Positions 1-40,744 of a stretch of 64,000 bases of DNA are shown here, one piece after another. Under the pieces are notes generated by a model. It saw only the letters and a program-made list of their open reading frames with translations. It was not told where the DNA came from and did no database searches. Position numbers and translations under genes: made by a program. The number at the start of each line of letters is the position of its first letter. Within the stretch, counting starts at the first letter, position 1. The stretch lies in sequence record DRR723986_5691; one strand, written 5' to 3'.

Positions 1-1521
1 GGCATTGAGCGCCAGAAGATTGGTCTGCTCCGCGATATCGGAAATAAGCTTCACCACTTCACCGATCCGCGAAGCGGCTTCGGCGAGCCCCTGAACCTGG
101 TCGTTGGTCTTCTTGGCTTCCGCCGTTGCCGTGGCAGCAACATTTGAAGACTGGGCGACCTGCCGGGAAATTTCCGAAACCGTCGACGACAGCTCTTCGG
201 CTGCGGAAGCAACGGTCTGAACGTTGGCGGATGCCTGCTCGGCTGCCGCGGCAACGTTCGAAGATTGTTGCTGGGTCTGCTCGGCGGTGGCGCTCATGGA
301 ACTTGCGCTCGATTCCAGCTGGGACGACGAGGACGATACCGCCTGGACGATTTCGCCAACAGAACTTTCGAAACTGTCGGCAAGCTCCATCATCATCCGC
401 TTCTGCTCGGCGGCGTTTCTTGCTGCCTGTTCCTTCTGCTCCGCTTCCAGTTCGCGGGTCCGGACGGCATTGGCGCGGAAAACTTCCACGGCGCGGGCCA
501 TGCTGCCGATCTCGCTCTTACGGTCGGTGTACTGGACGTCGATGTCGATGGATCCACCAGCGAGCGTTCCCATGGTTCCGGTAAGCGTTTTCACCGGCCT
601 GGTAATGCTGCGTCCGATCAGCCAGCCAAGCCCGATAGACAGCACCAGCGCGATGGCGGAAACGGTCAGGAATGTTGTTCTGGAGAAGGCCTGTGCAGTG
701 TCCAGCGTTTCCCCGGCAGCCAGCTTGCCCGCATAGGCAGCTTCAGACATCACCGCCCATTCCGGAGCGACCTGGGCGTAGATTTCCTCGATCTCGGCCA
801 GGTCGACAGCAATCTCCTGGGACAATTCGGCATAAGCCTGGAAGGAGGCCTGGTAGGTATCCAGCAGCTTGCCGATTTCAGCCTGCTCGGCGTCGGGCAG
901 CCCGCTTTTCGGCAGCAGATCTGCGAATTCAGCCCGCCGTTCGCTGATCCTGCCGATATATTTCTCGTCACCGCGCAGCATGAAATCTTTTTCATGACGG
1001 CGCATCATCAGCATCTTGACGGTCAAGGCATCCAGATTGGCGGCATCCAACTTGCTTTCAACGTCATGCACGGCAGTGCGCAGAGACCCCTGCAGTCCTG
1101 TGCTTTCATCAAGCCCCATTCGGGTAAGCTCACTGGTCAGAGCGTCGAACTTTGCCTTGTGCTGGTCCAGAACATCACGAAGCTTGGCGATGTTATCCTT
1201 GATGGAAGCCGATTGCGGCTTCGTATCGACATCGTTCAGGTTGCTCTGGGCTTTCTCGAACTCGGCCTTGTATTCCTCGACAAAGGCCAGGTCCTTGTTC
1301 AGAAGAAAGTCCTTTTGGCTGCGCTGCATGTTCTGGGCATGAGCCTGAACCTGCGACACCTTGAAGTCCATTTGCGAATATTCAGCCAGATTGTCGATTT
1401 CGTGCGACACGATTTGCTGGCTGTAAAGCGCCGTGCCAAGCAATACGCCAATGGCAACCACGGCGATTGCGGACAGCGCTCCGACACGCACCGCGATGGG
1501 CAGATCTGCAAAGAACTTCAT
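1..1521 (-). CDS. Methyl-accepting chemotaxis protein (3' end runs off the window)
   Basis: Not in the ORF track because it is open at the window edge. ATG at 1521 reads MKFFADLPIAVRVGALSAIAVVAIGVLL (TM segment). Bases 1-30 read EQTNLLALNA on the minus strand in the same frame, the MCP signalling-domain signature. Confidence 0.93.
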   Translation of the reverse strand, partial: MKFFADLPIAVRVGALSAIAVVAIGVLLGTALYSQQIVSHEIDNLAEYSQMDFKVSQVQAHAQNMQRSQKDFLLNKDLAFVEEYKAEFEKAQSNLNDVDTKPQSASIKDNIAKLRDVLDQHKAKFDALTSELTRMGLDESTGLQGSLRTAVHDVESKLDAANLDALTVKMLMMRRHEKDFMLRGDEKYIGRISERRAEFADLLPKSGLPDAEQAEIGKLLDTYQASFQAYAELSQEIAVDLAEIEEIYAQVAPEWAVMSEAAYAGKLAAGETLDTAQAFSRTTFLTVSAIALVLSIGLGWLIGRSITRPVKTLTGTMGTLAGGSIDIDVQYTDRKSEIGSMARAVEVFRANAVRTRELEAEQKEQAARNAAEQKRMMMELADSFESSVGEIVQAVSSSSSQLESSASSMSATAEQTQQQSSNVAAAAEQASANVQTVASAAEELSSTVSEISRQVAQSSNVAATATAEAKKTNDQVQGLAEAASRIGEVVKLISDIAEQTNLLALNA

Positions 1522-1954
1522 AATGGTCTCGTTTTTTTGGGGCAGCTCTTGTCGAGCCTTGCACAGTGTGCCCAGAAAACGCTCAAGCCATTAATTTTCC
1601 TTTACGCGACTTGAATACTGAGCCGACTAATCTTCTAAACCAGAGGTTTATACTTCTACCAACTCAATCATTCAGAGAATTCATTCAACTTATTATTTAG
1701 GCAAAACAGCCTTTTTCACTGCTCCTGAATACCGGCCTGCCCAAAAACCGCACAGTTTCTCGGGCTCCTTCCTGTCACTTTTGACCATCACAAAAGGAGC
1801 GCGGACGCCAGCGTGCGTCATTTTTTCGCGTCGGGTCGGTGCAATCTTTTTCAGGGTTTCAGGCAAAAGCGGCCTGAAAACCGGCAAAGGCTTGGGTTCC
1901 TGCTGCCGGCGCGCAAATCCTGTGGTCTCGCCGCACGCCACCAGAACGCGGGCG

Positions 1955-2491
1955 TCACGCTGCCAGCGGATAGGCCTCTTCAACCAGATAGGGGCCGCCA
2001 CCGACACTTGATTTCGCCGAGAACAGCACAAAACGTCCGGCAATGAAGGGCTGCGCCTGGAAGTTGCCGCGCTCGCTCAGCCACTTGGCCACGTCCTCGT
2101 TGGTCGAGGTCCTGCAACGGGCAAGGGTGACATGCGGAACATACTTGCGCCGCTCGGCCGGCAGATGCAGACGCTGGATGATGCGTTCCTGCTCAGCCTG
2201 CAATTCGGCAAGTTGAGCGGTCGGCTCAACCCGGGCCCAGACCGCATGTGGCTTGCCGTTGCCGAAAGAACCAAGACCGTTGAGGCGGATTTCCACCGGA
2301 TCCCTGCGGACACGATCAAGCGCGGCGACGATCTCGTCGGCCGTACGGTCGTCGATGTCGCCAATGAAGCGCAAGGTGATGTGGTAGTTCTCCGGATCAA
2401 TCCAGCGGGCGCCCCGAAGGCCTCCCCGGAGCATCGAAAGCATGAGTGCCGTCTGGGACGGAATCTCAAGGCCTGTAAATAGGCGCGGCAT
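1955..2491 (-). CDS. thpR: RNA 2',3'-cyclic phosphodiesterase (2H phosphoesterase, LigT family)
   Basis: MPRLFTGL start; two HxT motifs (YHITLRF, PHVTLAR); GGAGGG RBS upstream. Confidence 0.9.
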   Translation of the reverse strand: MPRLFTGLEIPSQTALMLSMLRGGLRGARWIDPENYHITLRFIGDIDDRTADEIVAALDRVRRDPVEIRLNGLGSFGNGKPHAVWARVEPTAQLAELQAEQERIIQRLHLPAERRKYVPHVTLARCRTSTNEDVAKWLSERGNFQAQPFIAGRFVLFSAKSSVGGGPYLVEEAYPLAA

Positions 2492-2606
2492 GGGTGTTCC
2501 CTCCGCTGTCGCTGATGAATCCCATGAGGAATCAACTTCATGAAAATCGCAAGACAAAAAGCTAAGTTTTTGAGCGCGTTCAAAAATTCAGCGCCGCACT
2601 CAAATG

Positions 2607-2635
2607 AAAACCGGGCTGGTTCATAACCAGCCCGG
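2607..2635 (-). terminator. Rho-independent terminator of the aldo/keto reductase gene
   Basis: CCGGGCTGGTT-cat-AACCAGCCCGG stem followed by TTTT on the minus strand. Confidence 0.75.
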
Positions 2636-2691
2636 CCTCCGATCTGCAGATGATTCTCTAAAAAGATTTATCGATCAGGAAGTTACACCCG

Positions 2692-3744
2692 TTACGGCGC
2701 CGGATTGCCGAATTCCTGATGCAGCGCATCGATTTTCTCCAGAACATCGGCACTCAGCGTAACGTCCGCAGCTCCGATGTCGGTATCGAGCTGCTCAATG
2801 GTCGTCGCACCCAGGATGACCGATGTCATGAAAGACCGCGACATGGCAAAGGCAAGTGCCATCTGCGACGGATCAAGTCCCGCCTCCTGCGCCAGGTCCA
2901 GATAGGCATCGACCGCCTCGATGGCGCGCGGGTGCTCATAGCGCTGCAGGCGGTTGAACAGCGTCTTGCGGGCACCTGCCGGAAGGGCGCCATTGCGGTA
3001 TTTGCCCGTCAGATATCCCTGGGCCAGTGCCGAATATCCCAGAAGACCGACATCTTCCCGGCGGGCAACTTCCGCAAGGCCGGTTTCGAATGTCCGGTTG
3101 ACCAGGGAATACGCGTTCTGGATCGAGACGACCCGCGGCACGTCATACATCTCGGACGCGGCGACGTAGCGCATCGTGCCCCAGGCACTCTCGTTGGAGA
3201 CTCCGACGTGACGGATTTTGCCGGCCTTGACCAGATCCCCAAGGATTTCCAGCGTCGACTGGATGCTGTTTTCGTCCGGAGCCGGTTCGACATCCGCCCA
3301 GCGCGTCGGGTTTGAACCGAAGCCGCCGACGTTCCGGTCCGGCCAGTGGATCTGGTAGAGGTCGATATAGTCTGTTTCCAGGTTCTTCAGGCTGCGGTCG
3401 ACCGCAAATTCGATCTCTTCGCGAACCAGTTTCGCCTTCGCACCGTTTTCACGGAACCAGTCCATGTCGGTCCGCCCGACCACCTTGGTGGCCATGACGA
3501 TCTTGTCCCGCATGCCGGTTTTCTTGAACCACGTGCCGACGATGCGCTCGGTCCGGCCCTGGGTCTCTTTCTTCGGCGGGATCGGATAAAGTTCTGCCGC
3601 GTCAAAGAAATTGATGCCTTTTTCCACGGCGTGGTCCATCTGGGCGTGACCTTCGGCCTCGGAGTTCTGCTCCCCGAAGGTCATGGTACCGAGGCAAAGG
3701 GCGCTGACCTGTATATCCGTGCGGCCAAGACGGCGCTTTTCCAT
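2692..3744 (-). CDS. NADP(H)-dependent aldo/keto reductase, Tas-like
   Basis: LCLGTMTFGEQN, DAAELYP, DYIDLYQIHWP, SIQNAYSL motifs. Confidence 0.9.
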   Translation of the reverse strand: MEKRRLGRTDIQVSALCLGTMTFGEQNSEAEGHAQMDHAVEKGINFFDAAELYPIPPKKETQGRTERIVGTWFKKTGMRDKIVMATKVVGRTDMDWFRENGAKAKLVREEIEFAVDRSLKNLETDYIDLYQIHWPDRNVGGFGSNPTRWADVEPAPDENSIQSTLEILGDLVKAGKIRHVGVSNESAWGTMRYVAASEMYDVPRVVSIQNAYSLVNRTFETGLAEVARREDVGLLGYSALAQGYLTGKYRNGALPAGARKTLFNRLQRYEHPRAIEAVDAYLDLAQEAGLDPSQMALAFAMSRSFMTSVILGATTIEQLDTDIGAADVTLSADVLEKIDALHQEFGNPAP

Positions 3745-3822
3745 AAGACTATCCTTCAAATTTTGAAAACGGGGCGTCCCGGAAGCCGGATCGGCTTCCT
3801 CCCCAGGTCCAGAGCAAAGCCC

Positions 3823-4494
3823 CTAGGATCGGGCTTTGGCCAAAAGCTCTTCCACTTTCGGCAAAATGTTTTCGACGATGACTTCCACCCCTTTGGCGTT
3901 GGGATGCATACCGTCGGAAAGGTTGAGATCGGGATTGAGGGCGGCACCCTCGAGGAAGAAGGGATAAAACAACGCATCGTGCGCCTTGGCAACATCGGAG
4001 TAGATCGGATCGAATGCCTCGGCATATTCCGGCCCAAGATTGCGCGGAGCCAGCATGCCCGCGACAAGCACGGCAACGCCGCGTTCCGTCAGGCGCCGGA
4101 CGATTTCGTCGATATTCTTGCGCGTCAGCTCAGGAGAGATCCCCCGCAACGCGTCGTTTGCTCCGAGTTCCACGATGACGGCACTGGTGTCCGGTCCCAC
4201 CGACCAGTCCAGCCGCGACAGCCCGCCGCTTGACGTGTCGCCAGACACGCCGGCATTGACGACCTCGACCGATTGCCCCTTCGCATCAAGCGCTTTCTGG
4301 AGCTGATCCGTGAAGCCCTCTCCTGCCGACAGCTGATAGCCGGCGGACAGACTGTCCCCCAGCACCACCAGTTTCAGATCGGCCGACTGGGCGGCCATTG
4401 GCAGGAAAGACAGGATGATTATCGTCAGGCAGGCAATAAACCGGTTCACGTGAACACTCTTTTGGGACTGGAAGACGCTCTTCAACAGGCCCAT
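3823..4494 (-). CDS. tesA: Arylesterase / acyl-CoA thioesterase I (GDSL/SGNH family); start uncertain
   Basis: GDSLSAGY, NAGVSGDT, ELGANDALRG, DGMHPN blocks; signal peptide. Confidence 0.88.
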   Translation of the reverse strand: MGLLKSVFQSQKSVHVNRFIACLTIIILSFLPMAAQSADLKLVVLGDSLSAGYQLSAGEGFTDQLQKALDAKGQSVEVVNAGVSGDTSSGGLSRLDWSVGPDTSAVIVELGANDALRGISPELTRKNIDEIVRRLTERGVAVLVAGMLAPRNLGPEYAEAFDPIYSDVAKAHDALFYPFFLEGAALNPDLNLSDGMHPNAKGVEVIVENILPKVEELLAKARS

Positions 4495-4572
4495 ATGGTC
4501 GCAGAGCGTCCAATTGTCGAGGGCTTGTGACTGTCAGGAAGACGATCACACGCCCATTGTAAAGGCCAGAGA

Positions 4573-5283
4573 ATGACAAATTCGCCCGCGATCGCCCTGA
4601 AAGACGTCCACCTGACCCTCGGCGAAGGCGCCGGGCGGGTGCATATCCTGAAGGGGATCGACCTTCAGATCGAGAAGGGGGCCTCCGTCGGCCTTGTCGG
4701 CCCGTCAGGGTCCGGAAAATCGACATTGCTGATGGTCATGGCGGGGCTGGAACGCGCCGATGAAGGCTCGGTCAACGTGGCCGGATCCGAACTCGGCCCC
4801 CTGTCTGAAGACCAGCTGGCCCGGTTTCGCGGCCGCAATGTCGGCATCATTTTCCAGTCGTTTCACCTCGTCCCCAACATGACCGCGCTGGAAAACGTGG
4901 CCGTGCCGCTGGAACTTGCTGGGGATACCGCCGCCTTCGACAAGGCCAAGGCGGAGCTGGATGCCGTCGGGCTCGGACACCGCATGCACCACTACCCGGC
5001 GCAACTGTCCGGCGGCGAACAGCAGCGTGTCGCCGTGGCAAGAGCGCTGGTCGTCGAACCCGCGATCCTGATCGCAGACGAACCGACTGGCAACCTAGAT
5101 GAAAGCACCGGCGCACAGATTGTCGACCTGATGTTCACCGCCCAGAAGAACCGGGGCACGACGCTGGTTCTGGTCACCCACGACCCGAGCCTTGCCGCCC
5201 GCTGCGACCGCATGATCCGCGTTCGCTCCGGAGAAATCGAAGAAGAAACGTCTGACCGCGCCCGCCGCGAGGTGTCTGCATGA
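4573..5283 (+). CDS. ABC transporter ATP-binding protein (YbbA-like)
   Basis: GPSGSGKST, LSGGEQQRV, IADEPTGNLD; divergent from tesA as in tesA-ybbAP. Confidence 0.9.
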   Translation: MTNSPAIALKDVHLTLGEGAGRVHILKGIDLQIEKGASVGLVGPSGSGKSTLLMVMAGLERADEGSVNVAGSELGPLSEDQLARFRGRNVGIIFQSFHLVPNMTALENVAVPLELAGDTAAFDKAKAELDAVGLGHRMHHYPAQLSGGEQQRVAVARALVVEPAILIADEPTGNLDESTGAQIVDLMFTAQKNRGTTLVLVTHDPSLAARCDRMIRVRSGEIEEETSDRARREVSA

Positions 5284-7862
5284 GCGCGTTTGTCCCGGGC
5301 AACGCACCGGCAAACCACCAGACGATGCGCCTTGCCGCCCGGTTTGCCTTTCGTGAACTGCGCGGCGGCCTCAAGGGCTTTTACATTTTCATTGCCTGTA
5401 TCGCGCTCGGCGTAGCGGCAATCGCGGGCGTCACGTCTGTCTCACGGGCTCTTACAGAAGGGATTTCGCGCGAAGGCCAGTCCATCCTGGGCGGTGATCT
5501 CGATTTTTCCCTGATCCACCGGCAGGCCGACGCCGATCAACTTGCCTATCTGAGCGGCCTAGGTGATCTGTCCCGCGTTGCGACCACGCGGGCAATGGCA
5601 AGAAGACCTGAGACCGGCGATCAGGCATTGGTAGAGCTGAAAGCCGTCGACGGTCCCTATCCCCTTTACGGCACATTTGAACTTGCCTCCGGAGAAGCCC
5701 TGGAAACGGCCCTGGCCCGGAAAGACGGGACCTGGGGCGCCGTTGTGGACCCTTCTCTTCTCGCGCGGCTTGGTGCGAATGTCGGAGATACGCTCTCCCT
5801 CGGGCGAGCCACTATCCGAATTGCCGACACCATTGCCAACGAACCTGACAAACTGGCCGGGGGCATGGAATTCGGTCCACGCCTCCTGATTTCAGATGCC
5901 GCCCTGCCTGAAACCGGCCTGATCCAGCCCGGCAGCCTGGTGCGCTGGCATTACCGCGTTCGAATGGCCCCGGCTCCCAACCTGGAAGCAATGGAAGGGA
6001 TCGTCGAAGAGGCCAAATCCGCCCAGCCGGACGCGGGATGGCGTATCCGCTCCCGCGCCAATGCGTCCCCAGGCCTTCAACGCAGCATTGATCGCTTCGC
6101 ACAATTCCTGACACTGGTTGGCCTCACCGCGCTGGTGGTTGGCGGTGTTGGTGTGGCCAATGCCATCCGTGCCTATCTGGAAACCAAGCGTGAGGTTATT
6201 GCGAGCTTCAAGTGCCTGGGCTCGACGGGCGGCTTCGTCTTCAAGATCTATCTGGTTCAGATGCTGGTGCTTGCGCTGCTCGGCATCGTCGTCGGCCTTG
6301 TGCTGGGTGCCCTGATCCCCTTTGCCGCAGCTGCCGCACTGGCGCCGGTTCTGCCGGTCAAGCTCGCGGCCAGCATCTATCCGACCGAGCTTGCCCTTGG
6401 CCTCGTCTACGGCCTCCTGACCGCTCTCGCCTTTGCAATCTGGCCGTTGGGGCGGGCTCATGACGTACCGCCGACGGCCCTTTTCCGGGATATCGTGACC
6501 GGCGGCGCCAAGCTGCCGCGCAAACGCTATCTGTTTGCCACCGCGGCAACAGTGCTTGCCCTTGCCGCCATCGCCATTCTGCTTGCCCACGACCAGCGCA
6601 TGGCCGGCACCTACATCGCCGCATCCGCCGGTGCGTTCGTTTTGCTGGTGCTGGTCGCACGCGGGATCATGGCCATAGCCAGGCGCCTGCCCAGTGTCCG
6701 CTCGACCGAGCTCAGGCTGGCGATTGCAAACATTCACCGTCCCGGAGCGCTGACCCCGTCAGTCGTACTGTCGCTGGGACTTGGCCTGTCGCTGCTGGTG
6801 GCGCTTGCCCTCATCGACGGAAACCTGCGGCGCGAGCTGACCGCAACCATTGCCGACAAGGCTCCGAGCTTCTTCTTCATCGATATCCAGAGCCATGAAC
6901 GCGATGCCTTCGAGGCCTTGCTGCATGCTGAAGCATCCGACGCCAACCTGCAAAGCGTCCCGATGCTGCGCGGGCGCATTGTCTCGCTGAACGGTATCGC
7001 AGCCGACAAGTTCGTCCCTGCCCAGGAAGGCTCCGGCTGGGTGCTGCGCGGTGACCGCGGCATTACCTATGACGCAAGTCTGCCCAAGAACTCGAAGCTC
7101 GAAGAAGGCTCCTGGTGGCCGGAGGACTACACAGGCATTCCGCTGGTGTCCTTCGATGAAGAGGCCGCCACCGATCTCGGCCTCAAGATCGGAGACCGGA
7201 TCACGGTCAATGTGCTCGGCAGGGAAATCACGGCGGAAATTGCCAACACGCGTACGGTGGAATGGCAGTCCCTTGCGATTAATTTTGTAATGGTGTTTTC
7301 GCCGAACACTTTTGCCGGTGCCCCACATGCCCATCTGATGACCCTTGGCTGGGACGATGATGTGCCGGAAGAGACGGAACTTGCCTTGTTGAAGACGGTC
7401 TCGAACGCCTTTCCGACAGTGACGGCAATCCGGGTGAAGGACGCGATCTCCCAGGTCAACGATCTGGTGGCACAGCTTGCCTGGGCCATCCGCGGCGCAA
7501 GCTCGATCACGCTGATCGCCAGCGTTCTGGTTCTGGCAGGTGCACTTGCCGCCGGTCATCGCAGCCGGATCTACGATGCGGTCATTCTGAAAACCATTGG
7601 TGCGACACGGGCTCGCCTGATCTTCGCCTATGCACTCGAATACGCCATTCTGGGCCTTGCAACGGCGGTGTTCGCCCTGCTGGCCGGAGGGGTCGCCGCC
7701 TGGTACGTGATTACGCAGATCATGGACGGGTCGTTCGTGATGATGCCGGTGACCGCAGCAGGTGCCGCGCTGATCGCGCTGGTGCTGACGGTGGGTTTCG
7801 GCCTCATCGGCACATGGCGGGTGCTGGGTGAAAAGCCCGCACCTGTCCTGCGAAATCTCTAG
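5280..7862 (+). CDS. ABC transporter permease (YbbP/FtsX-like)
   Basis: 860 aa with two multi-TM halves, PSFFFIDIQ motif; ATGA overlap with the ATPase gene. Confidence 0.88.
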   Translation: MSAFVPGNAPANHQTMRLAARFAFRELRGGLKGFYIFIACIALGVAAIAGVTSVSRALTEGISREGQSILGGDLDFSLIHRQADADQLAYLSGLGDLSRVATTRAMARRPETGDQALVELKAVDGPYPLYGTFELASGEALETALARKDGTWGAVVDPSLLARLGANVGDTLSLGRATIRIADTIANEPDKLAGGMEFGPRLLISDAALPETGLIQPGSLVRWHYRVRMAPAPNLEAMEGIVEEAKSAQPDAGWRIRSRANASPGLQRSIDRFAQFLTLVGLTALVVGGVGVANAIRAYLETKREVIASFKCLGSTGGFVFKIYLVQMLVLALLGIVVGLVLGALIPFAAAAALAPVLPVKLAASIYPTELALGLVYGLLTALAFAIWPLGRAHDVPPTALFRDIVTGGAKLPRKRYLFATAATVLALAAIAILLAHDQRMAGTYIAASAGAFVLLVLVARGIMAIARRLPSVRSTELRLAIANIHRPGALTPSVVLSLGLGLSLLVALALIDGNLRRELTATIADKAPSFFFIDIQSHERDAFEALLHAEASDANLQSVPMLRGRIVSLNGIAADKFVPAQEGSGWVLRGDRGITYDASLPKNSKLEEGSWWPEDYTGIPLVSFDEEAATDLGLKIGDRITVNVLGREITAEIANTRTVEWQSLAINFVMVFSPNTFAGAPHAHLMTLGWDDDVPEETELALLKTVSNAFPTVTAIRVKDAISQVNDLVAQLAWAIRGASSITLIASVLVLAGALAAGHRSRIYDAVILKTIGATRARLIFAYALEYAILGLATAVFALLAGGVAAWYVITQIMDGSFVMMPVTAAGAALIALVLTVGFGLIGTWRVLGEKPAPVLRNL

Positions 7863-8192
7863 CGCAAAATGCGGTCAGCTGCTGTAGCGGCCAACGTGCG
7901 CACAGGAAAAAAGCTGATCAAAGGACGTTTGCCGGCTTCGGTCGAGCCTCCTTTGATCAGCAAGGCTATTTCCGGTGAACCGGTAGACTTCCGAAAACAA
8001 GATCGAACGAATTCTTGGCGGGCGCTGATCTATTTCGATCCGGCGCCCACAGCTCTTGGCAAACTTCGTTCAGGAAAAAATCCTGAAATACAACCAAATC
8101 GCGACAAACTTCAGCTCCACACAACTTGCATACTGAATTGATCTTGGCTATCCGGTTCAGCTCCGGGCAGTTTGTTAAGAAGGGGCCATTCC

Positions 8193-8966
8193 ATGTTCAA
8201 GTTTCTCCCGAAAATTCGTTTCAAGACCATTGCCGGGGCTGCTGCCCTGTCCGCAGTTGCCGCTATGGCTTTCGCCCCTGCCGCGTCGGCGGAAAGCCCG
8301 TTTCATACCGGGGTCTGGCAGTTGAACACGCCGGAAGGCCCGCGCGGCCTCGTCGTCAGTGACTGGCTGGTCTTCGAAAACGGTTTGCCGAAGCGCTGGC
8401 TCTATCGCCGGGCCGGCACCAACGACGCCAACCAGTTCGATTTCTTCACACGTTCGATGAATGATTCCGGCTACACGCCGGTCGGCATCCGGGTGTACCG
8501 CACCGGCGACAACGCGATGAAATACACGCTGGCGCCCAAGGGCGAGGATCCGATCGAGGTTTCCGCCGTCCGTCTTTCCATCCCGAATTTCGAGAACTCC
8601 TGCCTTTCCGTCGAGAAAAAAGGCAAGCGCTTCTACGGTAACTGGGTCGGCACTGAAGGCTCCAAGCTGAAGAAACTGAACGTGTCGAAAAACCGGCTGA
8701 CCATCGACGGAGAAGCGCGCAAGGTATCGATTGCGGAAGTCCGCGTCGGCCGCATGGGCATTACCGAAAATGGCAAGCCAATCGCTTTCCTCACCGATGC
8801 CGGCGGCGACTATGCGGTTCTGCAGTGGTTCAAGCCCGGTGTGACTGTCGAGCAGATGCAGGATCCGGAAAAGGAAATCCTCGATTTCGCGTCGGAAGAA
8901 ATCGTTCGCAACCCCGGCGGCACCTGCGACCGGCAGATCGAATCCCGACTGAAAGCCATGAAATAA
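8193..8966 (+). CDS. Hypothetical exported protein
   Basis: AGGGG RBS, Ala-rich signal peptide ending ASA|ES, host-like codon usage; no family recognised. Confidence 0.7.
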   Translation: MFKFLPKIRFKTIAGAAALSAVAAMAFAPAASAESPFHTGVWQLNTPEGPRGLVVSDWLVFENGLPKRWLYRRAGTNDANQFDFFTRSMNDSGYTPVGIRVYRTGDNAMKYTLAPKGEDPIEVSAVRLSIPNFENSCLSVEKKGKRFYGNWVGTEGSKLKKLNVSKNRLTIDGEARKVSIAEVRVGRMGITENGKPIAFLTDAGGDYAVLQWFKPGVTVEQMQDPEKEILDFASEEIVRNPGGTCDRQIESRLKAMK

Positions 8967-36199: not shown

Positions 36200-36365
36200 C
36201 AAGGCGGACTATCACTGGTTTTCGGTCCGATCTGCAAAGCCACCGTTCGTTGCGCTACGCACGAAGGTTCATAGAGGGCGGGAAGCGGTCTTTCGTTGCG
36301 GATCGCACGAATGGCGGCAATGCGGACAGAACAGTGATTGGCGTTTCTGACACGACGGCTGCTTA
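36200..36365. repeat. Degenerate hairpin repeat cluster 1 (left edge of the AT-richer island)
   Basis: TTCGTTGCG-NNN-CGCACGAA twice (36246-36265, 36292-36311); 36282-36313 matches 38874-38905 at 22/32 ungapped. Confidence 0.7.
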
Positions 36366-36458
36366 CCAAATTTCGCGACGACAGCAAAAACAGTAGGGGC
36401 AAAATCAGAGCTTCGAAATTTAGCAATATTTTGGGAATTGAGTGCTGATTTGCACCAC

Positions 36459-37715
36459 TCAATTTGAATCCCCATGGTTCCGTTTCTTGGGGAACGCAGG
36501 AAACAGATTCTTCTGGACGGTTACTCTTACGACATCTTCGTCCTGGATAGATGAGCGGCGCAAGTGACCGGCCTGCGTGAACACTTCAATGTCTTGATTT
36601 TCGATCAACACTTTCTTTAAGTCGTCTGAATGGATCGTCGTGTCGTTGTAAATAGATGCCTTTAACATACCGACTGTTATTGTATCGCCGAATTCAGCAA
36701 TAAATTGCGGCAGGTCGTTATGGAGCGCCGCCACATTCTTCGGGCGCATGTCGCTGCCCCAATCGAGAGTACCGAGGCCGCTATCATCGCTTCGATAGTC
36801 AAGCATTTTTAAACCCGATTTACCAAAATGCGCCTGCCCACCAGCATTGAGATGCAAAACGTCGTTGTAGACTTCTCTTGCCCGGTGGCTCTTCGAGAAA
36901 TGCATAAGCCAGTAATTGTAGCCTGTATTGTTGGCGCGATTGATCGCAAAGGGGCTTACGTAATTCGCGATATTGAGAACTTCTCCATGTAAAATGCGCT
37001 CAACGGCGCCAAGCCATTCGCCTTTGGTGCGCAGCGCTTCATCACCAAAGAACTGATCTTGTTTGACCCCAAAGTCTGTGATCAGTTTGTGCGTTTTCTG
37101 AGGATTGTTCCAGGAAGAGTAGTTGAGTAAGGCACCGATCATGAAGGTGAAGAACACTTCCGGATTCTTGAAGGAAACGACTATGTCTTGAATCGTTTGC
37201 AGTCCCACCTGCGTGTATCCGCAGGGATCAAGGTTGAACAAAACATTGGAATGCTTGGTCTCGAGGATTCGTCGCTTGATATCTCCGTAAACTTCTTCAA
37301 ACCTCCTTTCAAGTCGAACAATAGTGACCTGAAGTTTGTCGTTTCCTGCGTGTTCCTCTTGCCAAGCAGACAAATGCGGCCCCAGAGTCTGCCAAGCGTC
37401 ACTGGAATTGTCGTTGACGATAAACAAGCATTCTATTTCTAGATCGGGCAAGCCCTGATCCTTGCGCCAGATCGTGGTCTCATCTAGAAAACTGGCCAGT
37501 TCTTCCAAAAAAACAAGCGGGGAACCGGAAGCTCCACCTTCATAGACGCCGCCTCCGGCCATACCATCGACAATGGCGATTCTGAACCGACGATTCAGCG
37601 GAGTGCACTTTACCCGAAGATAGTTGTGAAAATACGAGCGTAGAATGTCGAGCTTTTTTCGCGTGTGATCTTCGAGAACAACGCCTGAAGGCCAATCGTA
37701 TTCTTTTTTTGCCAA
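36459..37715 (-). CDS. tcmP: Three-Cys-motif partner protein (TcmP-like; predicted SAM-dependent methyltransferase fold)
   Basis: HTRKKLDILRSY, IVDGMAGGG, LFNLDPCGY; directly downstream of the DUF5131 gene; TTG start; atypical codon usage. Confidence 0.8.
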   Translation of the reverse strand: MAKKEYDWPSGVVLEDHTRKKLDILRSYFHNYLRVKCTPLNRRFRIAIVDGMAGGGVYEGGASGSPLVFLEELASFLDETTIWRKDQGLPDLEIECLFIVNDNSSDAWQTLGPHLSAWQEEHAGNDKLQVTIVRLERRFEEVYGDIKRRILETKHSNVLFNLDPCGYTQVGLQTIQDIVVSFKNPEVFFTFMIGALLNYSSWNNPQKTHKLITDFGVKQDQFFGDEALRTKGEWLGAVERILHGEVLNIANYVSPFAINRANNTGYNYWLMHFSKSHRAREVYNDVLHLNAGGQAHFGKSGLKMLDYRSDDSGLGTLDWGSDMRPKNVAALHNDLPQFIAEFGDTITVGMLKASIYNDTTIHSDDLKKVLIENQDIEVFTQAGHLRRSSIQDEDVVRVTVQKNLFPAFPKKRNHGDSN

Positions 37716-37752
37716 AGCCTAATTTCCCAATTTCCCGAGAGATTGTATTTTC

Positions 37753-38529
37753 TCAGAAACTTGCCTGAACTGGCATCTCGTCCCAGGTGCGTCCCCGATA
37801 TTGGCGCCCATTCAACTTTTTTGAGCGTCGCTTGTTATCTTTTCCCCAAGTGCCCCATTGCTTGAAGAAAAAAGCTGTCTCGCTAACACGGCATGCGTCA
37901 TGAATTTCATCTATCCAAGCTTCTTTGATTGGTCGTGCGCGCGAACCACTTTCACCACCAACAATCGCCCAGTGAATGTCGGTAAGATCAATTTCACCTA
38001 CGCTGGCGATAAGAGGTTCAAAGGATATGAACCGAATGGCTGCCGGTACTCTGCGCAGGTCATCAATTCGCGCACCCACCACTTCACTTTCAACGCTGGT
38101 GCCCAACCAGACATTCCGCAGTGGTTCAGTTTGAATACTGGGAACAATTTCTGCCATTCTGTCGGGTCGTTTTGTCAAAATCTGATAGTGATGATGCGGT
38201 GTTCGAGCCATCACGCTCCAGACTTCCTCGATGAAGCTGCTCGAGACACTCGGGTGAAACAGATCGCTCATGGAGTTTACGAAGATCTTCCGAGGCTTTT
38301 TCCATCGGACAGGAATTTCCAATGAAGCACGGTCTTCACGAACGGCACCGTTCCAGATCCTTCGACCACCCGACTTACGCGTCAGCCCGGAATACTTATC
38401 AACCCCCATTGCCTCAAGCCGGTAAGCCATCTGCATCGCATAGCAGTTCGTACAACCTGCGGACATGATGTTGCAGCCCGCGACAGGGTTCCAAGTCGCG
38501 TCAGTCCATTCAATTTCCGTCTCGGCCAT
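37753..38529 (-). CDS. DUF5131 (phage Gp37/Gp68) family protein, radical-SAM-like
   Basis: IEWTDATWNPVAGCNIMSAGCTNCYA (Cx6Cx2C), IFVNSMSDLFH, LTKRP, WAIVGGESG, FFFKQWG; GAGG RBS. Confidence 0.92.
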   Translation of the reverse strand: MAETEIEWTDATWNPVAGCNIMSAGCTNCYAMQMAYRLEAMGVDKYSGLTRKSGGRRIWNGAVREDRASLEIPVRWKKPRKIFVNSMSDLFHPSVSSSFIEEVWSVMARTPHHHYQILTKRPDRMAEIVPSIQTEPLRNVWLGTSVESEVVGARIDDLRRVPAAIRFISFEPLIASVGEIDLTDIHWAIVGGESGSRARPIKEAWIDEIHDACRVSETAFFFKQWGTWGKDNKRRSKKLNGRQYRGRTWDEMPVQASF

Positions 38530-38869
38530 TTGGCGCCTCATGCAGTCACTTGAAGATCCACTAAAACGCACAACGACATTTGCACGCAATAGTTCGACCA
38601 CCATTTATCGGTGTAGGGACCAGAAATCTCTACTCAATGAGATCAACATCAAGCGGTGATTTTGCAATGCTAAAATTTGATTGCCACTGTGGCGCTAGAA
38701 CTCGATTCTGGTTGCCAGCTTGTACGTAAACGAACGACAACTATTGGAAAGCCCGTGGATTTATTCAAAGAAGTATGAAAAATCCGGTAAGGGCCAATCG
38801 TTACCTAGGCCCACGTCAGCGTTCTGCGGTTCCTTACAGTTTGTGCTAACTTCAGCATTTGACCTTTGC

Positions 38870-38965
38870 GTTTGAAGCGTACCTCCGCTGCGCGAAGCAC
38901 CAATGTCTCGTTAGGGCCGGTATCGCCAGCGCATCCGCAACCGATGGATGTCAGCTAAACGCGAT
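38870..38965. repeat. Degenerate repeat cluster 2 (between the cargo modules)
   Basis: 38874-38905 resembles cluster 1; 38914-38963 matches 40417-40466 at 38/50 ungapped. Confidence 0.75.
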
Positions 38966-39299
38966 TCTAGAAGACGAGCAGACAGTCCGCTCCCGGCCCC
39001 ATAGAGGTCATTTTCTATCCTCCTGGTCGCTCCAAAATTTTGCCCCGAGCGGATTCTGTCGAGGTCAACGTCCTGCCACGACTGCGGGGAGCAAGGAGAG
39101 ATACAAACCACCATTTGTTTCCCGGATGTATTGGCACAGATTTTCTCTGACCCTGTCGATGGACGCACTGGCCTCACAATGATGACCAGATGGCCTCTCG
39201 TGAAACTGTTGTCCCCAAACTCGTTGCTAAGCTGCGCTCAAGAAGGCAACATGGTTGTCATAGGCTTGTGGAGATAACATTGCGACGCTGGGAGATATT

Positions 39300-40184
39300 A
39301 TGACAACTGACGAGCGTTTTGCACATGCCGCCGATTTACTGGTGAAGATTGCTGCATTTGCAGCTTCGCCAACTCTTGTGACTTTCGGTGCCGCATCAGC
39401 TGGCGGCTATCTAAATCTGAAGGCTTTGGTTGGCCTTGTAAAAAGTACTGACCTTGCCAGCCTTGTCGAAGAGGACTTGCGACGAGGGCTAAATGTTCCC
39501 GGCACCGAATTACCCGATGATGCGGATGTACTATTTTTTCAAATGCTAGAGTTTGGTGCTCCCAACTTACGCGATCTTGTGGAGTTGGACCTTTCCCCGG
39601 AGCGCATTGCGACCCTTATCTCTCACCGAGCGGACGGTCCAGACTACTCAGTTCCAGGACTACGTTCTTCCTTTGAGAGCTGGATTATTCCTCCGCTGAC
39701 AACCCTCCTCAATGACTCTGAATTTATTGCTTCACTTGCGCCAGATATCACCCGCAGGACGCTAGAAAGCCTTACGGCGATCGGCCTTGGAATAGAGACC
39801 TTGCAGCTAAATGGAGACGAGTTGCGGGTAGCTTTGGCCGAAACGACCGCTCTAGTTAAGAGCATCGATCAGTCAGTCACCGCAATTCGATCCGGAAAGC
39901 GTGATGAAGAAGGCGTCGAACCGGACTCCGACACCTCAGTTACCCACATTCTCGCGGCACGCATCGCTTTAGGAACCTACTCGGACGACGAAGTTCGGGA
40001 GATTCGCAGAAGATTGGAGGACTGCAAAAAACAATTCATGATGACCTTCCAAGGAAAGAACCGGGCAGTTTGCCTGTGTTTCGTTCTTGAGCAGGTGAAA
40101 GATGGCAATGGCGGAACACTACCCGATCCCGATTGGCAACGCGACTACAGCCAACTTGGCTGCGACAACAATTTAGCGCGATAA
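39300..40184 (+). CDS. Hypothetical protein (orphan, atypical codon usage)
   Basis: GGGAG RBS, 294-aa ORF in an AT-richer region; C-terminal 4-Cys domain. Confidence 0.75.
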   Translation: MTTDERFAHAADLLVKIAAFAASPTLVTFGAASAGGYLNLKALVGLVKSTDLASLVEEDLRRGLNVPGTELPDDADVLFFQMLEFGAPNLRDLVELDLSPERIATLISHRADGPDYSVPGLRSSFESWIIPPLTTLLNDSEFIASLAPDITRRTLESLTAIGLGIETLQLNGDELRVALAETTALVKSIDQSVTAIRSGKRDEEGVEPDSDTSVTHILAARIALGTYSDDEVREIRRRLEDCKKQFMMTFQGKNRAVCLCFVLEQVKDGNGGTLPDPDWQRDYSQLGCDNNLAR

Positions 40185-40244
40185 CTGAACTGGACGTTCC
40201 GGGGGATTGGTAGATTTCTTACTTGCCATAATCTTCCGTTTCAG

Positions 40245-40480
40245 CCACCGGCACAAACGACCATTTCCGCCCGCTATCGAGAGCAGACCTCTGTCCAACG
40301 ACCGTTTGGTCCCGCACAGTGAGCCTTGGCAAGAGTGCAGACAACGCAGCCGCAGCGCATGGCCGGTAGGACCGGTCGCAACGCAGTCTGCAATTTGACT
40401 GATGAACGGCAGCTTTGGGCCGGAATTGCCAACGCATGCTGGACCAACGAATGTCGGCTAAACCCGTTCGAGGCACGTAA
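40245..40480. repeat. Degenerate repeat cluster 3 (right edge of the island)
   Basis: Contains the 50-bp match to cluster 2, AACGGCAGCTTTGGGCCG, AATGTCGGCTAAAC, and a TGCAGAC...GTCTGCA stem (40336-40392). Confidence 0.7.
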
Positions 40481-40744
40481 CCCGACAATCCGCCTTCCGC
40501 CCCCCAAATCTACCAGTCGGCAAAGCGCCCCCCGGCTTACCGCTTTACTGGAACCGCCTCATAAAATTTCCTCACATTCCCTTACGTTAATTCTTGCATT
40601 ACCGCACACATCGGCCCACTATCCAGAGCAGTTACTTGTCATACAAAGCCCTGTGACGCGCCATTTCTTGTGCGCTTCAAAGCAAAAGAAAGATGTGCCT
40701 GCTGAAGGCATTCAAGGCGCGACAGTCGATCTGGAACCTGACGT

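Follow-up and report, generated by a model that had tools for sequence, protein, structure and literature searches.

A mobile DUF5131–TcmP gene pair as a candidate two-enzyme module for DNA base modification

The window analysed here, a stretch of 64,000 nucleotides from sequence record DRR723986_5691, carries on its minus strand two adjacent genes, for a DUF5131 (phage Gp37-Gp68 family) protein and for TcmP, the three-Cys-motif partner protein. Fusions of DUF5131 homologues to TcmP and to three DNA adenine methylase families suggest that the pair serves nucleic-acid modification, most likely of DNA, and the cassette formed by the two genes is quite possibly, if short of probably, a self-contained mobile two-enzyme DNA base-modification module in which amino-methylation would be coupled to radical chemistry. 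What we infer about its substrate, step order, chemistry and biological role (self-marking or anti-restriction as against defence) is set out with the mechanism below. The pair is already catalogued and widespread and is not a discovery in itself: a 94%-identical pair in Roseibium aggregatum is annotated in RefSeq with the same family names, and the window copy is an ordinary member of a catalogued family lacking an assigned function. The interest lies in the family itself, and the question of its function is now directly testable.

Gene pair and family assignments

A preliminary description of the window, made from the letters alone, had proposed a two-gene minus-strand operon with a 37-bp gap and foreign codon usage; both reading frames, the spacer and the deviating composition were borne out. 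The pair is laid out as follows, in window coordinates.

37753..38529, minus strand: DUF5131 / phage Gp37-Gp68 family protein, 258 amino acids (aa), first gene of the pair
36459..37715, minus strand: TcmP (three-Cys-motif partner protein), 418 aa, TTG start
37716..37752, minus strand: spacer between DUF5131 and TcmP, 37 bp
38530..38645, minus strand: upstream region shared with a plasmid copy and lying inside the nucleotide match; presumed promoter and leader

The open frame of DUF5131 runs over 37753-38604 on the minus strand, beyond the assigned start; the start was placed at 38529 (258 aa) because every homologue begins MAETEIEW. GC content was 0.48-0.51 in the pair and 0.60-0.67 in the flanking genes, and GC at third codon positions (GC3) 0.52-0.54 and 0.67-0.80, respectively. 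A consensus scan found no sigma-70-like site in 38530-38645, and a promoter and terminator scan gave counts at or below the shuffled expectation, with nothing usable 5' of the DUF5131-TcmP operon.

Both family assignments held, with profile matches above their cut-offs. DUF5131 matched Pfam PF07505 at E 1.4e-99 (333 bits, cut-off 28.9) over profile positions 1-243 of 243, the PADLOC models PDC-M41B (4e-101) and PDC-M30B (1.4e-94), and phrog_2045 of PHROGs (1.5e-89). TcmP matched NCBIfam TIGR04474 at E 6.9e-47 (160.6 bits, cut-off 53), residues 16-289 aligning with profile positions 1-261 of 263, and in PADLOC it matched PDC-M30A at 2.1e-24 and, weakly, PDC-M41A at 7.2e-4. The check for defence-system membership that had been suggested thus places the pair as a candidate PDC-M30, adjacent genes matching both of its components, with the related PDC-M41 also matched. 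No nuclease domain was found in DUF5131 or TcmP with Pfam, NCBIfam, PADLOC or PHROGs. The literature search returned no functional or structural study of DUF5131, TcmP, Gp37/Gp68, PDC-M30 or PDC-M41, in agreement with the earlier statement that the chemistry is uncharacterised, and the family names of the pair are not mentioned in the DefensePredictor preprint.

Fusion partners of DUF5131

Longer DUF5131 homologues were examined among the best 120 of 1206 matches. A TcmP domain was detected in 52 of the 120 with a TcmP profile made here, 48 in the order DUF5131-TcmP and 4 reversed, and four of the DUF5131-TcmP fusions were confirmed by NCBIfam. A Pfam scan covering 42 of the other 68 gave the following partners.

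MT-A70: P0319
Dam, PF05869: P0341
HsdM_N plus N6_Mtase (E 9e-54): P0413
SNF2 helicase: P0336
AAA_25: P0334, P0396
ParB_N: P0425
DUF4326: P0354
DUF3102: P0310
GMT-wHTH alone: P0313

Judged by these domain matches, DUF5131 is joined independently to four kinds of putative amino-methyltransferase, three of them DNA N6-adenine methylase families. It has been joined to other DNA-directed modules as well, and these partners provide the strongest evidence obtained here for an action of DUF5131 on DNA in concert with a methylase.

Predicted fold and cysteines of DUF5131

The preliminary description had pointed out a Cx6Cx2C arrangement in the first gene in place of the canonical Cx3Cx2C and had called the protein radical-SAM-like, SAM being S-adenosylmethionine. 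Both observations stood up. C19, C26 and C29, together with C213, were invariant in 29/29 aligned DUF5131 homologues.

38443..38475, minus strand: codons of C19-x6-C26-x2-C29 (Cx6Cx2C), presumed [4Fe-4S]-binding triad

An AlphaFold2 (AF2) model of DUF5131 had a mean predicted local distance difference test score (pLDDT) of 79.7 overall, residues 225-258 falling below 50. In VIA-align the nearest structure to the model was spore photoproduct lyase (SPL; Z 12.7, root-mean-square deviation (rmsd) 3.0 over 190 residues), followed by viperin (Z 11.0), SkfB (10.4), SuiB (10.3) and NifB (10.1), and the top 13 of 13 rows were radical-SAM enzymes. The Foldseek matches followed the same order but were weak overall; SPL was again best (E 1.4e-3, TM 0.49), the leading matches SPL and MiaB having E-values of 1e-3 to 5e-3, and MiaB and RlmN were matched at E 4e-3 to 8e-3. 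No match to PDB sequences was found at E <= 1. DUF5131 thus models as a partial TIM-barrel fold of the radical-SAM type. In RadicalSAM.org it constitutes Megacluster-5-2, a neighbour of SPL at 5-3 (PMC9477430).

The C-terminal tail (residues 226-258, window 37753-37851) is nearly invariant, with the pattern WG.WGKDNK.RSKK.NGR.Y.G..W.EMP, and strongly basic, yet it was modelled at pLDDT < 50; it may become ordered only upon contact with nucleic acid or with the partner protein. A prediction of the DUF5131 and TcmP complex, run without supplied alignments, scored 0.01 against a mark of 0.34 and bears neither way on binding.

Insertions were also seen among the 120 long homologues. About 25 carry an intein-like insertion of ~330 residues directly after Cx6Cx2C (P0320, P0322, P0328, P0332, P0333 and ~20 more), and a LAGLIDADG domain was present in 22 of these ~25 according to precomputed annotation, one being verified here. 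Four or five others, e.g. P0368, P0380, P0412 and P0418, carry an HNH_3/NUMOD4 homing-endonuclease insertion near profile position 131. The insertion sites are taken to be the most constrained parts of DUF5131, because mobile insertions settle there.

Predicted fold and motifs of TcmP

TcmP was modelled by AF2 from a 94-sequence alignment with pLDDT 92.1 and a predicted template modelling score (pTM) of 0.90. The model has seven strands, a helical insertion (193-250) after strand 5 and a winged helix (321-398).

36849..37670, minus strand: TcmP methyltransferase core (residues 16-289, TIGR04474 span), with K21, D50-G-M-A-G-G-G56, D102, D163-P-C-G-Y167 and E186
36567..36755, minus strand: C-terminal GMT-like winged helix-turn-helix of TcmP (residues 321-383), PF22560 GMT-wHTH

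In Foldseek, Trm1 (2.1e-8) and RlmJ (8.2e-6) were matched, with 117 matches at E <= 0.001, the listed rows being nearly all methyltransferases. VIA-align gave RlmJ (Z 15.4, rmsd 3.2 over 212 residues), DUF519 (Z 14.8) and Trm1 (Z 12.8), and further class I methyltransferases including the DNA enzymes MmeI (Z 11.6), CamA and LlaBIII (Z 10.0). On the strength of the model TcmP is confidently predicted to have a class I SAM methyltransferase fold, RlmJ/Trm1-like, with a C-terminal winged helix in addition; the Rossmann methyltransferase fold, the absence of which had been named as an outcome that would speak against a methyltransferase-like partner, is present as a seven-stranded core.

Three features read from the second gene in the preliminary description were located in the model. 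The SAM-binding-like IVDGMAGGG (residues 48-56) directly follows strand 43-50, in the place of motif I. The DPCGY motif, proposed to lie where motif IV lies, is D163-P-C-G-Y167 after strand 157-162. The extra C-terminal domain is GMT-wHTH-like over residues 321-383: PF22560 was matched by 88/94 members of the TcmP family at E <= 1 (best 1.4e-18) and by the window protein at 23.4 bits, under the cut-off of 27, and in an Atlas feature search with TcmP 20 of 30 named matches bore PF22560, at a score of 0.92. The winged helix is missing from the short phage forms of TcmP (273-318 aa). The helical insert and the C-terminal tail are the least conserved parts of the protein.

Residues invariant in the 94-member subfamily alignment were K21, Y28, G54, D163, E186 and H296. 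The motifs were then surveyed in 295 aligned sequences, comprising the window protein, its subfamily, 101 TcmP proteins from the loci, 52 fusions and 47 phage copies. K21 was kept in 94/94 subfamily members, 52/52 fusions and 41/47 phage copies, and Y28 persisted across the alignment. Motif I, as D-x-F-[ACS]-G-x-G, persisted in fusions and phage copies, and D102, which follows strand 93-101, was D or E in 93/94 subfamily members and 51/52 fusions. Motif IV persisted across the 295 sequences as D-[PQ]-[YFCW]-G, each listed fusion variant starting with Asp; most fused and phage-borne TcmP sequences have it as D-P-[YF]-G. In the model, helix 16-36 bears K21, and D163 comes immediately after strand 157-162 (strand 4); from this layout the two are suggested to be equivalent to K18 and D164 of RlmJ.

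Searches by sequence gave little. Among the 94 TcmP relatives, any given Pfam methyltransferase family was matched by one member at most at E <= 1 (one relative matched PRMT5, E 0.061). Nothing in PDB was matched by TcmP at E <= 1, and no methyltransferase chain was found by phmmer or by profile at E <= 10, the two rows returned by the profile being at chance level.

Linkage and divergence of the two genes

TcmP was found at 80 genome loci, in alpha-, beta- and gammaproteobacteria, one Thermoanaerobaculia metagenome-assembled genome (MAG) and one Rhodothermales MAG. DUF5131 lay directly upstream on the same strand at 77/80; the remaining three comprised a single-frame fusion (L085), a gap of 982 bp and a locus ended by the contig. 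The genes were thus adjacent or fused at 78/80 loci, which agrees with the pairing of DUF5131 with the three-Cys-motif partner family mentioned in the preliminary description. Spacing was mostly 4-46 bp or overlapping. No third conserved gene was found across the 80 genome loci; additional gene clusters that recurred over the pair were considered as a third gene and rejected as alternative-frame or antisense open reading frames (ORFs).

On viral contigs found with TcmP, DUF5131 adjoined in 23/24 (20 upstream on the same strand, 3 convergent). Viral loci found with DUF5131 had a TcmP-like neighbour in 50/80, and in the main cluster of 48 viral pairs 26 were convergent, 17 had the neighbour upstream and 5 downstream on the same strand. 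Many of the viral TcmP-like neighbours were short (273-318 aa); the TIGR04474 model was passed by 5/5 of those tested, including the neighbours in Synechococcus phage Ssp-JY39 and Gordonia phage Jablanski.

DUF5131 is by far the better conserved of the two proteins. Median identity to the window proteins was 73% for DUF5131 against 41% for TcmP (78 paired genome loci), and when loci were compared in 5049 pairs, DUF5131 was more alike than TcmP in 91%, the identities co-varying (Spearman 0.83).

Mobility and the variable islet

A copy of the pair on Roseibium aggregatum plasmid NZ_CP045620.1 matched window 36459-38645 exactly, i.e. the pair and 116 bp upstream, at 90.5% nucleotide identity. DUF5131 and TcmP are considered to move as a 2.2-kb cassette, because the plasmid match spans the two genes and these 116 bp alone. 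The DUF5131 gene was present in 9/61 related genomes, with three or four copies in some. In the window the cassette lies within a low-GC islet.

36314..40404, no strand assigned: low-GC variable islet bearing the cassette, 4.1 kb, delimited by comparison with G001
39300..40184, plus strand: 294-aa ORF divergent from the cassette, inside the islet, GC3 0.50

The nearest genome, G001, was 97-98% identical to the window up to 36313 and again from 40405, and between the same flanks it had a different insert of 3.9 kb; GC of the islet was 0.48-0.52 against ~0.61. The 4.1-kb islet was therefore regarded as a variable hotspot, G001 holding other cargo at the same site, and the site behaves as a cargo-exchange hotspot. 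The earlier view of the pair as island cargo was thereby upheld.

The alternative cargo of G001 (L017, G001:C1:2848000-2853000) has ORFs at 599-1483 (+), 1747-2679 (+) and 2783-4549 (-), encoding a DUF3800 protein, an unassigned product of 310 aa and a protein of 588 aa that has an AIG2/GGACT (gamma-glutamyl cyclotransferase-like) domain at its C-terminus. These genes gave no PADLOC match and may be an uncatalogued conflict system. The 294-aa ORF at 39300-40184 lies outside the plasmid match and is not part of the mobile cassette; it had no match in Pfam, NCBIfam, PADLOC or PHROGs, and Atlas gave weak leads (0.83-0.84), one of them to a cluster of the NACHT N-terminal helical domain.

A search of the islet borders found neither a tRNA nor convincing direct repeats on the two flanks. 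Near one border a 29-nt unit is present in two copies (36237-36265 and 36283-36311, 76% alike), and border stretches (36237-36311, 40282-40492) match other places in G001 at 72-77% identity; such short repeats may be recombination substrates for cargo exchange.

The plasmid copy adjoins a cluster of helix-turn-helix (HTH), DNA methylase, DEAD helicase and GIY-YIG genes and Tn7-type transposition genes. In the extracted locus (L122, NZ_CP045620.1 51221-71407) positions 2755-8928 encode an HTH regulator, a 900-aa DNA methyltransferase, a DEAD/DEAH helicase and a GIY-YIG nuclease, within a Tn7-like element (TniB, Mu-type transposase), and this four-gene cluster looks like a restriction-modification-type defence system. 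On the other side are a group II intron and DUF932/ParB plasmid genes.

Neighbourhood and phage context

The following genes recurred beside the pair at the 80 genome loci.

PIN/VapBC pairs: 12/80
Serine recombinases: 11/80
Mrr-type endonucleases (Mrr_cat): 10/80
Hachiman HamAB: 8/80
ArdC: 6/80
ParB-like proteins: 6/80

Where Hachiman was present it was complete and directly downstream of the pair (L059:5321-9614 and seven further loci in L018-L097); HamA was matched at 3.9e-116 and HamB with a reported E-value of 0. This arrangement echoes the TcmP-Hna neighbourhood on pSymA of S. meliloti, in which the TcmP gene SMa2243 stands beside Hna (SMa2245) among co-regulated genes (PMC12445080).

At least 8000 significant DUF5131 candidates were returned by a word-indexed homologue search. 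By tblastn, DUF5131 was found in 178 of 50,697 cultured phage records, mostly actinophages; Pseudomonas was not among the ten commonest genera of these records, nor in 40 rows of the 178. LunaStella and prophiGD53-3 carry DUF5131 in replication or early regions, with DNA methylases adjoining, and in Gordonia phage Jablanski DUF5131 and TcmP lie between integrase and immunity repressor. A tblastn search with the window TcmP matched 1 cultured phage record, a figure that understates the family, since profile tests found more.

Proposed mechanism and points against it

In the proposed mechanism the fast-evolving helical insert and the winged helix of TcmP would pick the target site. TcmP would flip out a purine, most likely an adenine to be modified at N6, and would methylate or at least hold the base. 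DUF5131 would bind a [4Fe-4S] cluster via C19, C26 and C29 and cleave SAM to give a 5'-deoxyadenosyl radical, and its radical chemistry would be directed to the same base or to the methyl group just added. The result would be a hypermodified base marking the DNA of the element or cell that bears the cassette.

Several results weigh against this scheme. The two closest solved relatives of TcmP, RlmJ and Trm1, methylate RNA and not DNA, and at the level of sequence TcmP matched neither a solved protein nor the Pfam family of RlmJ. Its motif IV, D-P-C-G-Y in the window protein and D-Q-[YC]-G in the majority of its close relatives, is not the canonical (D/N)PP(Y/F), and the equivalence of K21 and D163 with the RlmJ residues was drawn from the order of structural elements, not from residue-level superposition. 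For DUF5131, the cysteine spacing is non-canonical for radical-SAM enzymes, and Pfam Radical_SAM (PF04055) was not matched in a scan at E <= 0.01, which gave DUF5131 alone; variant cysteine spacings do occur among accepted radical-SAM members. Finally, 30/80 viral DUF5131 loci hold no TcmP, so that DUF5131 can presumably work without it, and a recognised DNA methylase was present within 1.5 kb in just 7 of these 30, a count that is no more than suggestive. The methylase types there were D12, Dam, MT-A70, N6_N4 and C5, three of the 7 loci having a C5-cytosine methylase only.

Alternative explanations

The preliminary description had offered base modification and defence side by side. Its families, folds, island cargo and uncharacterised chemistry are retained, and the DNA methylase fusions point to modification; the defence reading is left at the level of neighbourhood and a PADLOC candidate.

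It is unlikely that the pair is a restriction-modification-like or abortive defence system, in which TcmP would mark host DNA or sense an invader and DUF5131 would damage unmarked DNA by radicals, replacing a nuclease, e.g. by hydrogen abstraction from base or sugar. Both proteins match the PADLOC candidates PDC-M30A/B, the cassette sits in a variable hotspot, and Hachiman HamAB (8/80), Mrr-type (10/80) and PIN/VapBC (12/80) genes are among its neighbours; ArdC, ParB and serine recombinase genes are, however, equally common there. The Roseibium plasmid copy adjoins the methylase-helicase-GIY-YIG cluster, and the position of the Jablanski pair between integrase and immunity repressor is likewise in keeping with defence. 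Methylase-effector fusions with SNF2 or other helicases recall single-chain restriction-modification enzymes, and MmeI and LlaBIII are among the structural matches of TcmP; the nearby nucleases are, however, inconstant (Mrr_cat 10/80) and none is found inside either protein. DUF5131 occurs without TcmP in 30/80 viral loci, and also in lytic-phase replication modules, a distribution that fits poorly with a self-toxic effector needing a protective methylase. To our knowledge no radical-SAM DNA-damaging effector has been described. PDC-M30 was predicted in 32 P. aeruginosa strains, of which 68.8% were phage-resistant, a correlation only (PMC10855318), and the PDC systems are 145 candidates obtained by 'guilt by embedding' in known defence systems and stated by their authors to be untested (10.1101/2024.01.29.577857).

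An RNA-modifying pair is quite unlikely. Like RlmJ and Trm1, TcmP would then methylate a purine of tRNA or rRNA, which DUF5131 would elaborate in the manner of TYW1, MiaB, RlmN or Cfr, so as to tune or disable translation in conflicts between element and host. RNA methyltransferases take the first three places among the structural matches of TcmP, MiaB and RlmN are among those that Foldseek gave for DUF5131, and one phage record labels its DUF5131 gene 'RNA methyltransferase'. Against this, DUF5131 is fused to modules directed at DNA (HsdM-type N6_Mtase, Dam, MT-A70, ParB_N, SNF2 and the DnaB-like AAA_25), its top fold match, SPL, is a DNA enzyme, and TcmP bears a winged helix. Moreover, RlmJ has an active site that was judged to resemble DNA m6A methylases more closely than RNA dimethylases (PMC3814359).

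A DNA-repair pair, with DUF5131 as an SPL-like lesion-reversing lyase and TcmP as its lesion- or base-flipping subunit, is very unlikely: SPL is the nearest solved structure to DUF5131 and the single extra invariant cysteine, C213, could serve as hydrogen donor, as the catalytic cysteine of SPL does, but the patchy mobile spread (9/61 genomes), the hotspot site and the fast-diverging partner are unlike housekeeping repair, DUF5131 is repeatedly fused to active-looking methylases without an obvious repair role, and TcmP has kept its motifs for SAM binding and catalysis.

Significance of the family

Returning to methylase-coupled DNA modification, a wider proposition is put forward as a speculative one: DUF5131 may constitute a large overlooked class of radical-SAM DNA modifiers acting on bases presented, and probably first N-methylated, by a TcmP, MT-A70, Dam or HsdM-type partner, which would yield an undescribed purine hypermodification. 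Were this true, an unrecognised epigenetic mark shaping restriction, anti-restriction and defence would be carried by thousands of phages, plasmids and genomic islands. Since no more than two radical-SAM enzymes acting on DNA were known in 2021 (PMC8989533), methylase-coupled radical-SAM modification of DNA would amount to new chemistry, a new mark and a new player in phage-host conflict. The analysis points to purine amino groups of DNA as the likely substrate class and singles out the key residues (C19, C26, C29, C213, K21, D163), and the natural single-chain fusions should lend themselves to purification and imaging more readily than two separate proteins.

Comparison with known systems

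The window pair shares with the TIGR04474/PF07505 family both profiles and the defining adjacency, and nothing separates it from that family. The window TcmP and its subfamily have a C-terminal winged helix that the TIGR04474 model of 263 positions and the short phage forms do not include. With PDC-M30 and PDC-M41 the pair shares the same component matches, these PADLOC systems being themselves untested candidates.

Among characterized methyltransferases, RlmJ (E. coli 23S rRNA m6A2030, m6A being N6-methyladenine) and DUF519 are the best structural matches of TcmP (Z 15.4 and 14.8). RlmJ acts on RNA and is inactive on single-stranded DNA, and its motif-X K18 on helix 1 and motif IV (DPPY) D164 are both essential (PMC3814359). 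Like RlmJ as described there, TcmP has a lysine on the first helix (K21, the suggested counterpart of K18), an aspartate after strand 4 (D163, that of D164) and a helical insertion. It differs from RlmJ in lacking sequence similarity to it, in having a motif IV of the form D-[PQ]-x-G-x and ~130 extra C-terminal residues with a winged helix, and in being obligately paired or fused with a radical-SAM-type enzyme. Trm1 (tRNA m2,2G26) is the best Foldseek match, at an identity of only 13-15%; unlike TcmP it acts on the N2 of a tRNA guanine and has no radical-SAM partner. Motif IV of Trm1 is D-P-F-G, near the D-P-[YF]-G that the majority of fused and phage-borne TcmP sequences have.

For DUF5131 the nearest solved fold is that of SPL, a radical-SAM DNA repair enzyme that acts on a flipped-out DNA lesion. 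Compared with SPL, DUF5131 has ~10% identity, Cx6Cx2C in place of Cx3Cx2C, 258 residues against ~340 and an invariant basic tail. A radical-SAM enzyme that installs a DNA modification is known from phage M6, in which gp53, an SPL-like isomerase of a modified thymidine in DNA, was described in 2021 as the first of its kind (PMC8989533). As in the role proposed for DUF5131, M6 gp53 is SPL-like, is encoded by mobile DNA and reshapes an already modified base after replication. Unlike DUF5131, it has Cx3Cx2C, and its partners are kinase, transferase and pyridoxal phosphate (PLP) enzymes working on bases derived from 5-hydroxymethyldeoxyuridine (5-hmdU), with no methyltransferase among them. By analogy, phage M6 gp53 is the closest known precedent for the mechanism proposed here.

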